Source: a virus. From it: a stretch of 64,000 bases of DNA. This document shows, piece after piece, positions 27,115 through 54,309 of this stretch. Numbering within the stretch: the first letter of the stretch is position 1; every line of letters begins with the position of its first letter. The translations under genes were made by a program, and so were the position numbers. Under the pieces are notes generated by a model that was given only the letters and a program-made list of their open reading frames with translations, had not been told where the DNA came from and did no database searches. Location of the stretch: IMG/VR virus record IMGVR_UViG_3300044858_003398. One strand, written 5' to 3'.

Positions 27115-28007
27115 TGTATACATACAACATGGCCGGGTGGGTGGACCTACCCGACGCAGTAGACGCTGTAGAATCCCAAGTCGGTGTGTTTGGATCTGCA
27201 GCGTCTTTTCTTACAGATACTGGCAAGGGAAAAATAGTCTGCCTTCATGATAACTACAAGAGAGCTGGCTCCAGCTTTTACTATGTCAATCAAGGCGACG
27301 TTGGTAGCTGTGTGTCTGCTGCTGCCTCTCTAATTACTAATACCCTTATGAGCACAGAAATAGCCTATGGGGAAAGAGAAGAGCTAAGAGGATGGATAGC
27401 GATTGAGCCACTCTATTATGGTGCCCGAGTTGTCATAGGTAAGAATCAAATAAGGGGCGATGGAGCGGTCGTTGCACATCAGATTAAGTATATGGCCGAA
27501 TATGGCACCCTACTTAAGCAGAAGTATGGGGCTATCGACCTAACAGAATATTCAGTTGAGCGATGCCGAAAATGGGGCACTGGATCTGGTTTCCCAAAAA
27601 CCCTTGAAACTATCTCCAAAGATCACACTATATCTGTTTACTCACGAGTTAAGAGCTACGATGAAGTCAGAGATAGTATCGCCAACGGATATCCAGTAGA
27701 AGTTGGATCTTCTTATGGATTCGCTAGCGAGACTGATAATGAAGGATTCTGCTCCCAAAACACAACTTGGCAGCACGCCCTATCGATCATCGCTGTAGAT
27801 GACAACAGTAAAAGAAAAGGTTGCATGATCTCTAATACTTGGCCTCTTAACTGGCTAAAGATCCGCAAACGTAAGCTTAATCAACCAGACGGATGCTTCT
27901 GGGTTGATGCTGAGATCATCAATAAGATGGTTTCGAGGGGCGATGCGTGGTCAATTGGCGGATTCAATGGATACAAGGCAAAGGTAGATACTAGCCTTAG
28001 CTGGTAG
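27114..28007 (+). CDS. papain-like cysteine peptidase (C1-like)
   Basis: QGDVGSCV (Gln/Cys), WQHAL (His), ISNTW (Asn), PDGCFWV. Confidence 0.85.
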   Translation: MYTYNMAGWVDLPDAVDAVESQVGVFGSAASFLTDTGKGKIVCLHDNYKRAGSSFYYVNQGDVGSCVSAAASLITNTLMSTEIAYGEREELRGWIAIEPLYYGARVVIGKNQIRGDGAVVAHQIKYMAEYGTLLKQKYGAIDLTEYSVERCRKWGTGSGFPKTLETISKDHTISVYSRVKSYDEVRDSIANGYPVEVGSSYGFASETDNEGFCSQNTTWQHALSIIAVDDNSKRKGCMISNTWPLNWLKIRKRKLNQPDGCFWVDAEIINKMVSRGDAWSIGGFNGYKAKVDTSLSW

Positions 28008-28016
28008 GAGATAGAG

Positions 28017-28646
28017 ATGAAGAAAACACTGATTCTAGCAATCATACTATTCATGATGTTTATGCCAACTGAGAGTACGCCAGCAGTACTCGATTTTTCG
28101 GCTGAAGATCTTGATGCTTATGGTATTGCTGGTGCGATGATGATGGTAGCACCTATCGGTGCTGATGATCTGGTTCCTATCCCTAAGCCAGAACCGCCAA
28201 AGCCAGTCACTGAATGTAAATGTAAAAATGGCAAAGTCTCATACGATGGTGGGACCTCTCTGACAGACTGCCCATGCAAGGACTCCGATAAAGATTGCGG
28301 CTGCAAGAAGTCGGTAAAAGAGATATTACCAGACACTTTTCCTAGAATCGTGCTAATTACTCAACCATCTGTGTGCCCACCGTGTGTGACTACAGACAAA
28401 AACGTTGTTGCCAAACTCAGGGATGATATTCATAAAAAGGCCGGTTGGGATGTGGGACCAGAAGCCTTCAATGATCTTCAGGTGTTAGATTTAGATGATG
28501 AAGCATCTTATGATGAGATTGACAGATTGAAACTAAAATACACATCAATTCCCTCTTTCTTTTATTTGGAGAAGAGCGGAGTCACTAAAATTTACACTGG
28601 TGCTATATCTTACGACACTTATATTAAGTGGTCTAAAAAAAACTGA
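28017..28646 (+). CDS. exported thioredoxin-fold protein with Cys-rich linker
   Basis: Signal peptide, CKC..CPC..CGC cluster, CPPC, SIPSF cis-Pro loop. Confidence 0.7.
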   Translation: MKKTLILAIILFMMFMPTESTPAVLDFSAEDLDAYGIAGAMMMVAPIGADDLVPIPKPEPPKPVTECKCKNGKVSYDGGTSLTDCPCKDSDKDCGCKKSVKEILPDTFPRIVLITQPSVCPPCVTTDKNVVAKLRDDIHKKAGWDVGPEAFNDLQVLDLDDEASYDEIDRLKLKYTSIPSFFYLEKSGVTKIYTGAISYDTYIKWSKKN

Positions 28647-28843
28647 GTACTACGTATTCTCGTATTAGTTATCGTAGATGGCAACTTAATGGATCGTCTT
28701 TTCCTAGCCGAGATCAACTAGTACAACACCTACAATCACAACATGGAATATCTAGCTTAGACGATTTGTCATATGAAGAACTATTAGCAATTCACGACGA
28801 TGATCACAATGGAGTATACAATGAAGCTAATAGATCTTTTTGA
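28637..28843 (+). other. candidate -1 frameshift extension (66 codons) of the thioredoxin gene
   Basis: A AAA AAC immediately before the TGA; the -1 frame is open to 28843 with no ATG. Confidence 0.55.
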
Positions 28844-29114
28844 GGAATTAATCAAGAATAAGACTGTCGAAGTATCTGATGGCGTAAATATAAAATGTAG
28901 TGATGAGATCAATCTAACGATTTCATCACATAATGACGAAGTCGTAATCAAATTTGGATCACCAGCAGTTCAGGTATTTATTACCAAGATGGGGCCGATG
29001 CGGCTCTTGAATGCAGTTCGGCCCACTATTCAGTCAATTACCATAACAGACAAATCGTTCAAAATCAGTGTAGACAATGCTCCCGATATGGAGGTGGCTC
29101 GTGAACTGGTATGA
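28821..29114 (+). CDS. hypothetical protein
   Basis: GGAG SD, ATG at 28821. Confidence 0.55.
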   Translation: MKLIDLFEELIKNKTVEVSDGVNIKCSDEINLTISSHNDEVVIKFGSPAVQVFITKMGPMRLLNAVRPTIQSITITDKSFKISVDNAPDMEVARELV

Positions 29115-29397
29115 AGAATACTGCAAAGAGTTCGGCTATTCTGCAAAACCGGGCAGAAGAGGCGAGCGAGACGCCGACAGAATGAAGAGACGAGTAGAGA
29201 AGGCCGCTACCTTGTCTAAGGAGGACCTTTCTTCTTTTACCGATAGGGTTTCAGCAGAAGCCCATTTGGAGGATAAAGCCGTAGGCATGTATGGATCTTT
29301 TGGATTCATGCTATTTCAAGCTTTGATATCTTGGGTGATTCGAAGAATTTTAGACAGCTATTTTGGGTCAAAGAATGACAATAACAGTATCGGCTAG
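29101..29397 (+). CDS. hypothetical protein with C-terminal amphipathic/hydrophobic helix
   Basis: GGAGG SD before GTG; YGSFGFMLFQALISWVI. Confidence 0.5.
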   Translation: MNWYEEYCKEFGYSAKPGRRGERDADRMKRRVEKAATLSKEDLSSFTDRVSAEAHLEDKAVGMYGSFGFMLFQALISWVIRRILDSYFGSKNDNNSIG

Positions 29398-29884
29398 TTC
29401 TTTAGTAAAAACATCCTTCAATTTCACAGAGACTCAGTCTGGCACTATCAGATCTGAGAATGAGTCTATTACAGCCAATCGGGCCTACACCTACGGTACT
29501 GGCAATTTTGAGATTGATGCCGCAGTAAAGAACACTGGGGTGATCCCCTCAGGTGGGTCTGTAGTGCTCGACCTTAACGCAATGACTAATGAGTCATTTG
29601 GAATTACTTCCACCATTGCATTTTCTGGGATTAAGACTGTAACGGTCTATAATACGTCCACAGTCCAAAATAGAGATATCAATATCAGAGCTACTGGATC
29701 GAATGCTTTCACGAATTTGTTCAATGGTGGGTCTGGAAACCTCCTTATTAAGCCCTACTCTAGTTTTACCTACAATGACCCATATAAGCTTACGGTAAGC
29801 TCAACCCAGAAGAACATCAGTTTGTTTGACGTGAGTGGCTCTGGGGCCACCTACGAGATCTGTGTGTTAGGAAATCTGAGCTGA
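29375..29884 (+). CDS. putative virion structural protein (beta-rich)
   Basis: T/S/G/N-rich composition, YTYGTG, LFNGGSGNL. Confidence 0.5.
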   Translation: MTITVSASSLVKTSFNFTETQSGTIRSENESITANRAYTYGTGNFEIDAAVKNTGVIPSGGSVVLDLNAMTNESFGITSTIAFSGIKTVTVYNTSTVQNRDINIRATGSNAFTNLFNGGSGNLLIKPYSSFTYNDPYKLTVSSTQKNISLFDVSGSGATYEICVLGNLS

Positions 29885-51085: not shown

Positions 51086-51526
51086 ATGGATATCCTTGAA
51101 AAATATGAAGCCCTTATAGCCGATCTTGCACATTCTCTCTATAGGAAGACCCACCTCTATGATTTTAAAGACCTCTTCCAGATAGGACTCCAGTCGGCTA
51201 TAAGGCTTGAAAAAAAGTTTGACCCAGTCAGGTCGCAGAGGAGCACATTCTTCACTCTATGCGTCCGAAGAGATATGGTCAAATTTGTCAAAAGACATAA
51301 CAAAGCTTTCACTAATACGATCCTACCAAGTGGCCTTGGATCAAGCGATGAGCTTCAGCTCTGGGAATCTCTGCCTGACTTATGTCCCGAGGATGCAGAG
51401 ATGGTCAGGATGCTCTCCGAAGGCCACAGTAAAAGAGAAGTGGCCAAACGCTTACAGCTACCGCTCAAAGAAATAAAAAGTCGGCTAATCAAGGTTGGGG
51501 AGTTAATATGCTCAAAAGAGTGCTAG
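51086..51526 (+). CDS. small sigma70-family factor (regions 2 and 4)
   Basis: DLFQIG..FDP....FFT; C-terminal HTH EGHSKREVAKRL. Confidence 0.75.
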   Translation: MDILEKYEALIADLAHSLYRKTHLYDFKDLFQIGLQSAIRLEKKFDPVRSQRSTFFTLCVRRDMVKFVKRHNKAFTNTILPSGLGSSDELQLWESLPDLCPEDAEMVRMLSEGHSKREVAKRLQLPLKEIKSRLIKVGELICSKEC

Positions 51527-54309
51527 TTGGGTCTGAGGCTTCTTATCTGAATACTGGGTATGCTTCTTACGGTCGTGAGCTTATCAGGCGGCTTATAGCC
51601 ACCGGCAAATATGAAGTAGCCGAGATCTCCTGCTACGGATCTGCCGATGACGAAAGACGTAAAGAGATCCCTTGGAAGAATTATCCAATGGCTCCGTCTA
51701 AGACAGATTCAGACGAGGTAAAGAAAATCTATGCGTCAAATCCAGCCAACCAATTCGGGGCATGGAGATTCGAGAGGGCCTGCCTAGATTTTAAGCCAGA
51801 CTGCCTTATAATGCAGAAGGACCCTTGGATGGATTCTTGGGTGAAGCATTCGCCCTTTAGACCATTCTTCTCTTGGTCTTGGGCTAGTACGGTGGACTCA
51901 GCCCCTCAAAATCCAGAGTGGATTAATCAGTTTGCCGATGCTGACTATTTCTACACCCTATCAGAGTGGGCGGAAGGGGTCATCAAGGAGCAAGCTGGTG
52001 ATTCGGTGAATCTGATAGGCTCTGTCACGATGTGTGCCGCCGACGAGTTCAAGCCCGTCCCCAACAAGGCCGCTCACAGGCTCTCCATGGGCCTAGATCC
52101 CGATTGGAAGATTATTGGGACGGTTATGCGAAATCAAAGACGAAAGCTCTTCCCTGACCTCCTAGAGGCCTTCGCTTTTTATCTGGCCACTACCGGAGAT
52201 GAAAAGACTTATCTCTATTGTCATACGTCATACCCCGACAACGGGTGGGACCTGCCCCAATTAATGATGAAGTATGGGATTTCATCTCGGGTCCTATTTA
52301 GCTATGCCTGCGAAGAATGTGGCAAATTGTCAATCAGCAAATTTAGTGATACGATCAAGCAATGTAAAAATTGTAAGAAGTATGCAGCAAAGCTATCTAG
52401 TGTAAGTAATGGTGCTACGACCGCTGAGTTGGCTAAGATTTATAATCTGTTTGATGTGTATACTCAATACTCTAACTGTTTGACTCCGGGTCAAGAGATT
52501 TGTACGTCAACAGGATGGAAGAATACTGAGGATATTCAGATCGGAGAGTCTGTTCTGACCCATAAAAACAGATGGAGGCCAGTAGTAAGAACGTTTAAGC
52601 ACGAACATGCGGGTGATGTACTAACGTTCACTACTCATTCTGATGACGAGTCACTCACAGTTACGGGCGAGCATCCACTATATGTATTGTCTGCCAAAAA
52701 TTACAAATTTGGCCAGAGTAGAAGTTTTAAAAAGAGACTGAGTGACATTATCAGGCTCGGAGGCAAGATAGAACCAACTTTTGAATTAGCTAGGGACATT
52801 AAGGCTGGCGACTTTGTCGCTTATGCCATCGATCAAGAAGAATTTGATCATACTATTGATCTACAGCCTTGGAATAATAGCCAATATGTAATCGAGGGAG
52901 ATACATATCGACACAAAAATTCTTCTGTAGCTCACAAATTGAAATATGTAGTAGACGCAGATTTGGCTAAATGGATTGGACTATATGTAGCCGATGGTTG
53001 CTCTATGACTACAGATAGCTGCGGATCTGTGACTGTAACATGTCACGAGAAGGATAAGGCCAATATAGAATTATGCGAAAAGGTCATGGCAAGATTCGGG
53101 AATGTGTCAGTACAGCCATATCCTGAGAAACATGCTGTAGCAGTACAAATACACAACAAGGTATTTGCGACGTATTTGCTAGACCATTGTGGTAAGCACG
53201 AGTACAAAAAACTACCAGAATGGGCAAGTAAGCTACCTTTACCTCTGCAGAAAGAGATATTGTCTGGTTTGTTTATGGGGGATGGATGTTACTATGAGAA
53301 GAGAAAGACATCATCGTATGCTACTATTTCAATATCCCTATCCCGGCAGATTAAACATTTGTGCCGAAGATTACGTATCAACTATAATGTTAGCTCTATT
53401 CAAAAAGTTGGAAATAGAAAGCTGCAATATCGTTTTGAGATTTCTGGAGATGTCTCTATAGGAGCCTACAAAACTACTAAGACTTCAAGCAGGGGATTCT
53501 ATCATGGTGGGTATGCCTTCTATCAGATTAAAGATGTATCTACTAAAGAATATACTGGTTTTGTCTACAATTTAGAGGTAGAAGAAGACAATTCATATAC
53601 TGGTAGGATGGGTACTATACACAACTCGGAGGGAATGGGCTTAGGCCAAATAGAAGCCGCCGCATGTGGGATTCCAGTTATGTCTACTGACTATTCCGCA
53701 ATGGAATCCATCGTCCGTAAAGTTGGAGGATTCCCGATTCCGCTCAGGGCAAAAGTCCTAGAGCTTGAAACCGGATGCTATAGGGCCATTCCCGAGATTG
53801 ACGATGTTGTTTCCTACTGGAAGATGTTTTTCTCTTTACCGGAGAGTGATAGGGCGGCGATATCTGAGAAGACTTTGTCTGAGTACTCTCGCAACTTCAA
53901 CTGGGACGATGTTGTAGCCAAGTGGATGATCTCCTTAGACCAGTCTCCGAAGGCGACTTGGGATAAGCCACTAAGACAAATCAAGATGCCCGATGACAAG
54001 ATTCCCAATTTTACCAATAATAAGGATTTTCTTGATTGGGCCATCTCTGCTTATTTGCCCCACTCTAATCTGACTAATTCGTATGAGGCCAACTGCCTAC
54101 TTAGGGACCTGAATTTCAGATCATACAAGCCGAATCCGTGTGGCTTCTTCTATGCTGAAAGCTCCTACTTCAATAGGGTCCCGTTTGTCGATTTTGGCAA
54201 GGAGCATGTGATTAATATGTTTAAGGCCAAGGCCGAAACATTCAATTTCTGGGAAAATGTAAGATGTGGAAAAAGAAAGCTCCAGACGGAGGATTGGCTC
54301 AATGATTAG
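51508..54309 (+). CDS. glycosyltransferase family 4 with intein and Zn-ribbon insert
   Basis: LNTGY, VMRNQRRK, CEEC..CKNC, SN|SEGMGLGQIEAAACG, TDYSAM. Confidence 0.88.
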   Translation: MLKRVLVGSEASYLNTGYASYGRELIRRLIATGKYEVAEISCYGSADDERRKEIPWKNYPMAPSKTDSDEVKKIYASNPANQFGAWRFERACLDFKPDCLIMQKDPWMDSWVKHSPFRPFFSWSWASTVDSAPQNPEWINQFADADYFYTLSEWAEGVIKEQAGDSVNLIGSVTMCAADEFKPVPNKAAHRLSMGLDPDWKIIGTVMRNQRRKLFPDLLEAFAFYLATTGDEKTYLYCHTSYPDNGWDLPQLMMKYGISSRVLFSYACEECGKLSISKFSDTIKQCKNCKKYAAKLSSVSNGATTAELAKIYNLFDVYTQYSNCLTPGQEICTSTGWKNTEDIQIGESVLTHKNRWRPVVRTFKHEHAGDVLTFTTHSDDESLTVTGEHPLYVLSAKNYKFGQSRSFKKRLSDIIRLGGKIEPTFELARDIKAGDFVAYAIDQEEFDHTIDLQPWNNSQYVIEGDTYRHKNSSVAHKLKYVVDADLAKWIGLYVADGCSMTTDSCGSVTVTCHEKDKANIELCEKVMARFGNVSVQPYPEKHAVAVQIHNKVFATYLLDHCGKHEYKKLPEWASKLPLPLQKEILSGLFMGDGCYYEKRKTSSYATISISLSRQIKHLCRRLRINYNVSSIQKVGNRKLQYRFEISGDVSIGAYKTTKTSSRGFYHGGYAFYQIKDVSTKEYTGFVYNLEVEEDNSYTGRMGTIHNSEGMGLGQIEAAACGIPVMSTDYSAMESIVRKVGGFPIPLRAKVLELETGCYRAIPEIDDVVSYWKMFFSLPESDRAAISEKTLSEYSRNFNWDDVVAKWMISLDQSPKATWDKPLRQIKMPDDKIPNFTNNKDFLDWAISAYLPHSNLTNSYEANCLLRDLNFRSYKPNPCGFFYAESSYFNRVPFVDFGKEHVINMFKAKAETFNFWENVRCGKRKLQTEDWLND
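52477..53625 (+). mobile_element. intein with LAGLIDADG homing endonuclease (383 aa)
   Basis: CLTPGQ start, TGEHP block B, IGLYVADG and SGLFMGDG, VYNLEVEEDNSY...HN|S. Confidence 0.92.

Follow-up and report, generated by a model that had tools for sequence, protein, structure and literature searches.

How can a protein domain be produced from a reading frame that has no start codon? This question is raised by a thioredoxin-like gene in a stretch of 64,000 nucleotides (the window), which is part of the IMG/VR virus record IMGVR_UViG_3300044858_003398. The record, from lake water, is 123,595 bp long and 79% complete according to CheckV. The gene, an open reading frame (ORF) at 28017-28646, codes for 209 residues and ends with TGG TCT AAA AAA AAC TGA. 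Behind it, the translation of the -1 frame gives a start-less tail ORF of 66 codons plus stop (P0001, 28643-28843). All coordinates given for this gene, the junction, the tail and the next gene are on the + strand. An earlier note, made from the sequence alone, proposed that a programmed -1 shift adds the tail, a domain with a histidine motif, so that a short and a long isoform are made. The conserved site, the conserved direction of the shift, the selection on the tail and the existence of fused homologues all argue for this proposal. We consider it highly probable that recoding of one kind or the other takes place at the run of adenines, and we give about an even chance to a programmed -1 ribosomal frameshift at A_AAA_AAC.

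The junction has the anatomy that the earlier note described. The heptamer A_AAA_AAC is read in the 0 frame at 28637-28643, and the 0-frame stop TGA (28644-28646) abuts its 3' side. In the -1 frame a TAA at 28634-28636 closes the frame upstream, and from 28637 the frame is open, through the 66 tail codons, to a TGA at 28841-28843. From these two stops it follows that the frames overlap on the heptamer alone, and the upstream TAA means that a shift must happen at 28637-28643. The heptamer follows the pattern X_XXY_YYZ and lies in frame within this overlap. The tail frame contains neither ATG nor GTG, and a TTG does not appear before codon 42. The tail fills an apparent gap of 174 nt before the next gene and overlaps that gene by 23 nt, when its start is placed at ATG 28821. 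As noted earlier, the ORF track misses it, i.e. no + strand ORF of at least 30 residues is listed in the tail region. Between the ORF and the tail we found no promoter-like or terminator-like site on the + strand.

The adenines of the heptamer belong to an A8 homopolymer (28635-28642), the sole run of eight or more As or Ts in the 123.6-kb record. The record holds nine A runs of seven or longer and four such T runs. For independent bases about 3.9 A runs of at least eight would be expected, and this one is observed. The arrangement is more than chance.

To what extent is the split between the frames kept in relatives? The 209-residue protein has 40 homologue clusters at E<=0.001 (264 candidates). 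The C-terminus is WSKKN in 22 of these clusters and WSKKK in two, giving 24 SKKN or SKKK ends, and six more end in a run of lysines (five other ...KKK, one ...QKK). Six clusters are long in-frame forms (P0026, P0027 and P0029 with 272-276 aa, P0039-41 with 298-307 aa), and four have other endings (P0028, P0030, P0033, P0038). We also obtained the DNA of 14 related loci, six from viral contigs (of 109 pattern matches) and eight from metagenomes (of 442). Ten of the 14 are split like the window, and the shift needed is always -1. Their junctions have five spellings, and the protein identity is 41-92%. The spellings are TCT AAA AAA AAC TGA (L001, L002, L008, L010), TCT AAA AAA AAC TAG (L003, L009), TCT AAA AAA AAA TAA (L007), CCA AAA AAA AAG TAG (L004, L005) and TCA AAA AAA AAG TAG (L012). 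The last three loci, which have 41% identity to the window protein, carry the heptamer A_AAA_AAG. The run is A8 in the window and six loci, and A9 in four loci.

Each of the ten split loci has a homologous tail in the -1 frame, with the 0-frame stop immediately behind the heptamer. This stop (TGA, TAG or TAA) is kept in 10 out of 10, while the tail begins with different residue pairs (LS, LD, IN, VA, VD); the conservation is therefore that of the stop itself and does not follow from a constant peptide. The run is constrained as well: TCT AAA AAA is identical in six out of six distinct relatives. Of the 109 invariant degenerate residues in the upstream ORF, only 23 keep one codon and 86 vary it, and lysine is encoded about equally often by AAA and AAG. 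The remaining four loci differ. One (L011, 36% identity) lacks the tail and the next gene follows directly, another (L006) is a 300-residue in-frame fusion with a diverged tail, L013 ends at the contig edge and L014 has an internal stop. The homologue check suggested in the earlier note thus yields both fused in-frame forms and split forms that keep the slippery site. A tblastn search with ORF and tail against 50,697 GenBank phage records gave no match, and the bacterial and archaeal species genomes gave a single 17-residue partial match.

This pattern bears on the idea that the split is an artefact or decay, i.e. that a fused gene was misread at the homopolymer or that a gene broke recently. 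Homopolymers are indeed error-prone, and fused relatives exist. However, the same break occurs in ten independent loci with five spellings, and synonymous sites in the run do not vary. The run length was also compared on assembled contigs, which cannot reveal minority alleles. It is A8, without any indel, in contigs of three independent DNA runs (X5 record 9, X10 record 1, X15 record 3), and one of these, the 96-kb contig X10 record 1, has a depth of 104.6. The tail is moreover under selection (see below). Together with the conservation, the three A8 assemblies exclude a sequencing error for practical purposes, and we rate artefact or decay as the most improbable of the explanations considered here.

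A related possibility is phase variation at the DNA level, where the length of the A run changes during replication and gives split (A8) and fused (A9) subpopulations. An A9, which would fuse the frames, is indeed read in one 247-nt contig (run X19, wastewater, depth 3.79). Its library bears the label METAGENOMIC RNA-Seq cDNA and was rated probably DNA; none of the runs listed as containing the stretch is recorded as RNA. A difference in a single contig at a depth below five may be an error, and the contig is from another strain, since it carries two other differences. It could be a strain with a fused allele, a product of RNA slippage, or an error. Also in favour of phase variation is P0044, a 295-aa in-frame fusion with the junction KKKV as in the split forms P0045 and P0047, which shows that the run length has changed in evolution; judging from these sequences, it seems to have alternated between lengths that split and lengths that fuse the gene. 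On the other hand, none of the 40 clusters is fused at the SKK junction, where 24 are split, even though their length range covers a 275-aa fusion. The three DNA assemblies all read A8, and the split state persists across synonymous distances (pS) of 0.23-0.69. No close longer protein was found with the tail as query (a word-index search for longer proteins with the tail gave 26 candidates, none significant), although such a null is weak evidence. Phase variation is therefore an improbable explanation.

Is the tail a real coding sequence? We estimated the ratio of nonsynonymous to synonymous substitution rates (dN/dS) from six distinct sequences, using the 59 tail codons outside the overlap with the next gene and dropping one of the 15 pairs, which had fewer than eight differences. 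In the tail frame dN/dS is 0.09-0.22 for the 14 pairs, and in the other two frames 0.45-5.99. The tail is under purifying selection.

The tail also has homologues, which the earlier note had named as a check. An exhaustive phmmer search among 1.84 billion representatives found 21 proteins at E<=0.001. Of these, 17 were fetched, leaving out P0046, P0051, P0053 and P0062 (1396-6310 aa), which have short partial matches. In two of the hits (P0043, P0044) the tail is fused in frame to the same protein family as here, as it is in the long forms P0026, P0027, P0029 and P0039-41 of the 40 clusters and in the locus L006. In another group it is fused to ordinary CGPC thioredoxins (P0048, P0049, P0058, P0060, P0061), three of which (P0048, P0049, P0058) exceed the cut-off of Pfam Thioredoxin PF00085. 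Small tail-bearing proteins with N-termini that by eye are hydrophobic and signal-like form a third group (P0050, P0054, P0055, P0059), and three sequences are short -1-frame ORFs starting with a run of lysines (P0042, P0045, P0047). Among viral loci, four (L019-22) encode thioredoxin-tail fusions with a lipoprotein signal, and four others (L023-26) encode proteins with a twin-arginine translocation (Tat) signal (RRNFIK) and the tail at the C-terminal end. Export by the Tat route would fit a cofactor-bound domain in these last proteins. Going by these sequences, the tail domain appears to be confined to exported proteins outside the family studied here. As a separate observation, the L023-L026 phage proteins, which have a twin-arginine-type signal (MERRNFIKVLAAAPFFGAALA), finish with the His-motif domain and a basic tail behind it.

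These results also speak to a further alternative, that the tail is translated separately, by termination-reinitiation or from a non-canonical start at the CUG that overlaps the stop (C-UGA). The CUGA overlap of the window does resemble AUGA stop-start overlaps. In relatives, however, CUA, AUA or GUA stands at this position, so there is no conserved start, and the A run offers no Shine-Dalgarno sequence. On its own the tail would lack a signal, whereas elsewhere the domain lies behind N-termini that by eye are hydrophobic, lipoprotein-type or Tat-type. Fused homologues exist, and a word-index search of 5.8 billion clusters yielded no close match to the tail as an ORF of its own. Separate translation is thus very improbable, hardly more credible than an artefact.

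The tail has the consensus Y.R.S..RW.LNG...PSR..LI.HL..EH....LSY.ELL.IHDDDHNG. A model made with AlphaFold2 (AF2) from an alignment of 27 rows (A2) has a predicted local distance difference test score (pLDDT) of 91.8 and a predicted TM-score (pTM) of 0.80, with helices at residues 23-33 and 44-55. The four-histidine motif described earlier is a feature of the family: His29, His51 and His55 each occur in 24 of the 27 rows, and His34 in 18, with a shift by one position in six more. In the three rows without the histidines (P0026, P0027, P0029) all four are gone at once, which suggests, at the level of sequence, that they act as one unit. A putative metal site formed by the four histidines is a reasonable guess.

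According to the model the tail is a real domain of two helices, and it belongs to no named family that we found. Against Pfam the only match is DnaD_N at E 0.098, and 18 relatives match Pfam in their thioredoxin parts only. The best PHROGs match has E 0.15, and NCBIfam gave no match. Structure searches gave a best E of 6.8 against the PDB with Foldseek, a best Z of 4.8, below the meaningful level, with VIA-align against 48,161 chains, and no usable match in the ESM Atlas. The weak likeness reported by VIA-align is to the helix-loop-helix folds of the Rho N-terminal, SAP and LEM domains. Docking of the thioredoxin domain (residues 105-209) with the tail, run without controls, gave a score of 0.00 and allows no verdict.

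What would the tail be attached to? The short isoform, i.e. the 209-aa product of the 0-frame ORF (28017-28646), starts with a hydrophobic signal or anchor, followed by a Cys-rich region and then the thioredoxin fold. In the AF2 model residues 3-14 form a helix, and residues 108-209 have a pLDDT of 90-97. This last part (28338-28643) was assigned as a thioredoxin-fold domain from AF2 and Foldseek, where thioredoxins and DsbD-gamma rank highest (best E 8e-4, probability 0.98-1.00). The motif C120-P-P-C123 (28374-28385) lies at the start of helix 121-134, and C120, P122 and C123 are invariant in 27 sequences. With Pfam Thioredoxin_2 the protein scores 17.6 bits (E 0.0051), under the cut-off of 27, and NCBIfam gave no match for the 209-aa protein. 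In the Cys-rich region (28215-28304), modelled at low confidence, the CxC pairs C67/C69, C85/C87 and C94/C96 are invariant in the alignment (A1) and surround the motif GKVSYDGGTS. It is a possible metal or disulfide module. A distant relative is represented by two metagenome contigs that are almost the same; inside this region one of them (L014:238-573) has TAA, an in-frame stop, and the other (L013) has GAA.

Taken together, we propose the following model. Most ribosomes would terminate at the TGA at 28644-28646 and release the exported 209-residue protein, with its signal or anchor, its Cys-rich region and its CPPC thioredoxin fold. Some would slip back by one base on A_AAA_AAC (28637-28643), probably by a slip of the tRNAs on the homopolymeric run, which the slowly decoded stop adjacent on the 3' side would help. 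The shifted ribosomes would read on through 28643-28840 and make a long form of 275 residues, which carries the 66-residue two-helix domain with the histidine motif. From the sequences we infer that both isoforms, short and long, are made. Recoding is very likely because the tail has no start or signal peptide of its own, is under selection, is exported elsewhere and is fused in frame in relatives. Since the tail lacks a start and a signal, and elsewhere occurs in exported proteins alone, fusion to the secreted thioredoxin would be its sole route to the site of action.

The harder question is which machinery slips. In programmed transcriptional slippage the RNA polymerase would add one untemplated A on the A8 run (A9 in relatives), giving the same two isoforms. 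We regard this as possible, at a clearly lower probability than the ribosomal shift. One argument between the two is the direction. According to PMC3711429, orthologues with programmed ribosomal frameshifting (PRF) keep a single direction, while slippage families show both. By this published criterion a ribosomal slip is favoured, as the shift is -1 in all 11 split sequences (the window and ten loci), a small sample. A second argument is the stop, which always abuts the run: this is a context that acts at the level of the ribosome and is not needed for transcription. Thirdly, the 41%-identity relatives use A_AAA_AAG, described in PMC5009743 as the most shift-prone heptamer in bacteria. Finally, A_AAA_AAC is used by IS1 with no established stimulator in the account given by PMC4066793, so a shift at this heptamer can work without one. 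Also against slippage of the polymerase, no run is longer than nine, and the A9 contig has a low depth, is from another strain and comes from a library rated probably DNA.

Several observations weigh against a ribosomal shift. A_AAA_AAG shifts far more readily in E. coli than A_AAA_AAC or A_AAA_AAA (PMC5009743), which are weak heptamers there. Any A8 contains an in-frame heptamer in every phase, and the heptamer alone is thus not discriminating. The runs are A8 or A9 where A6 would suffice, and the extra As are conserved, which is what slippage of the RNA polymerase would select for. Runs of more than seven As are the class used for transcriptional realignment (PMC3711429), and tssM1 uses an A11 before the stop, at about 20-25% (PMC4256274). 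All 11 split sequences have eight or nine unbroken As, and none has an interrupted heptamer such as G_GGA_AAG. The cDNA-labelled contig of 247 nt (depth 3.79) reads A9. The criterion of direction is based on five junction types only, and the long product is itself predicted from sequence.

The lack of a stimulator points the same way. Stimulators, either a hairpin or pseudoknot 5-9 nt downstream or a Shine-Dalgarno-like sequence on the 5' side, are common and not universal. The hairpin pointed out in the earlier note, GAGUAC-UAC-GUAUUC, is present at 28645-28659, with six pairs of which one is G-U, and it starts 1 nt past the heptamer. Its outer pairs (23-37, 25-35) are broken in three of six sequences, with no compensatory changes, and the alifold consensus (-6.47 kcal/mol) has no covarying pairs, i.e. 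there is no conserved structure. These comparisons give no support to the hairpin as a stimulator, and it is probably not one. We found no conserved 3' structure, no Shine-Dalgarno-like stimulator on the 5' side and no Rfam match. A scan of 28400-29000 against Rfam gave a chance miRNA match at E 0.15 and nothing else.

With the ribosomal shift as the preferred reading, one can ask what purpose the arrangement would serve. The run set against the stop might be a termination-sensitive switch, with an isoform ratio that tracks release-factor activity or the translation load of the infected cell and is not a constant leak, and the tail a new extracytoplasmic four-His metal-binding module (Zn or Cu) working with CxxC thioredoxins. 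We offer this as speculation that is unlikely to be right.

The gene is surrounded by genes of a large tailed phage for replication and nucleotide metabolism, which include DNA polymerase, ribonucleotide reductase (RNR), ThyA, PhoH, UvsX-like and DnaB-like proteins and glycosyltransferases. No tRNA genes were found in the window. The next gene (28821-29114) codes for 97 residues from ATG 28821, which is preceded by GGAG at 28811-28814, and has alternative ATGs at 28800 and 28809. No family match was found for it in Pfam, PHROGs or NCBIfam. In the relatives (L001-L012) the thioredoxin gene always has this gene behind it, be the tail split, fused or missing (L011). The end of the tail and the opening codons of this gene share the same DNA in two reading frames. 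Upstream, a 297-aa protein (27114-28007) has a weak Peptidase_C39-like match (E 0.079), and the region from 26176 to 29400 is a block of small proteins without family. Further away, a 933-aa ORF (51508-54306) has PHROG matches to a glycosyltransferase (residues 6-318), the large subunit of anaerobic RNR and an endonuclease (residues 481-705), and is perhaps a fusion product or an inserted homing element.

The annotated phage frameshifts that we found described are overwhelmingly in another class of genes: in SEA-PHAGES, 2397 of 2476 joined genes are tail assembly chaperones (PMC10885494). The site described here would be a conserved recoding site outside this class, carried by uncultured freshwater phages in the gene of an exported redox protein. 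It exposes a domain of about 60 residues that is invisible to gene callers, which miss it because it has no start codon. The domain, without a counterpart in Pfam, NCBIfam or the PDB, recurs on exported thioredoxins and on proteins with Tat and lipoprotein signals. The naturally fused, split and tail-less variants make the family a ready-made system to study the purpose of the isoform ratio, and also to tell ribosomal from polymerase slippage on a short A run beside a stop.

By analogy, the site would work like IS1 insAB', dnaX, T7 gene 10 or tssM1, in a class of gene that the literature we found had not linked to recoding. No publication was found that connects programmed frameshifting with a phage thioredoxin, and searching for the HDDDH motif gave unrelated work. 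In IS1 the efficiency of the shift is low. A first likeness is to IS1 insA-insB', where the same heptamer, by a -1 shift, fuses an upstream ORF to a start-less ORF, with no established stimulator as these sources present it (PMC4066793, PMC5009743). IS1 is the transposase of a bacterial insertion sequence, whereas here we have an exported phage thioredoxin, an A8 run and a 0-frame stop that abuts the heptamer.

In E. coli dnaX, strong stimulators flank the tau/gamma heptamer, which is A_AAA_AAG as in the 41%-identity relatives here. As proposed for our case, dnaX recoding on an A run gives two isoforms with a common N-terminus (PMC3711429). The same gene uses either ribosomal or polymerase slippage, and in Thermus dnaX the A9 is transcriptional, according to PMC3711429. 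The shifted product of dnaX is the shorter form, whereas here the shift would lengthen the protein and there is no conserved stimulator.

The shift site of T7 gene 10 lies close to the end of its ORF. Gene 10 (10A/10B) of T7 and T3 differs from the present gene in coding for a capsid protein, in its G_GU-type heptamer and in an extension that is not a widespread independent domain. As proposed for the thioredoxin gene, a -1 shift in this phage gene adds a C-terminal extension in a minority of the products; T7 gene 10 is mentioned in PMC5009743. Finally, tssM1 of Citrobacter rodentium resembles the gene studied here in having a poly-A shortly before a stop, and it gives a truncated form and a full-length form extended by a C-terminal domain (PMC4256274). 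In that system slippage was shown to be transcriptional, on an A11 with the stop 28 nt downstream, whereas here an A8 or A9 has the stop directly adjacent. According to the same report, both the truncated and the full-length form of tssM1 are needed.

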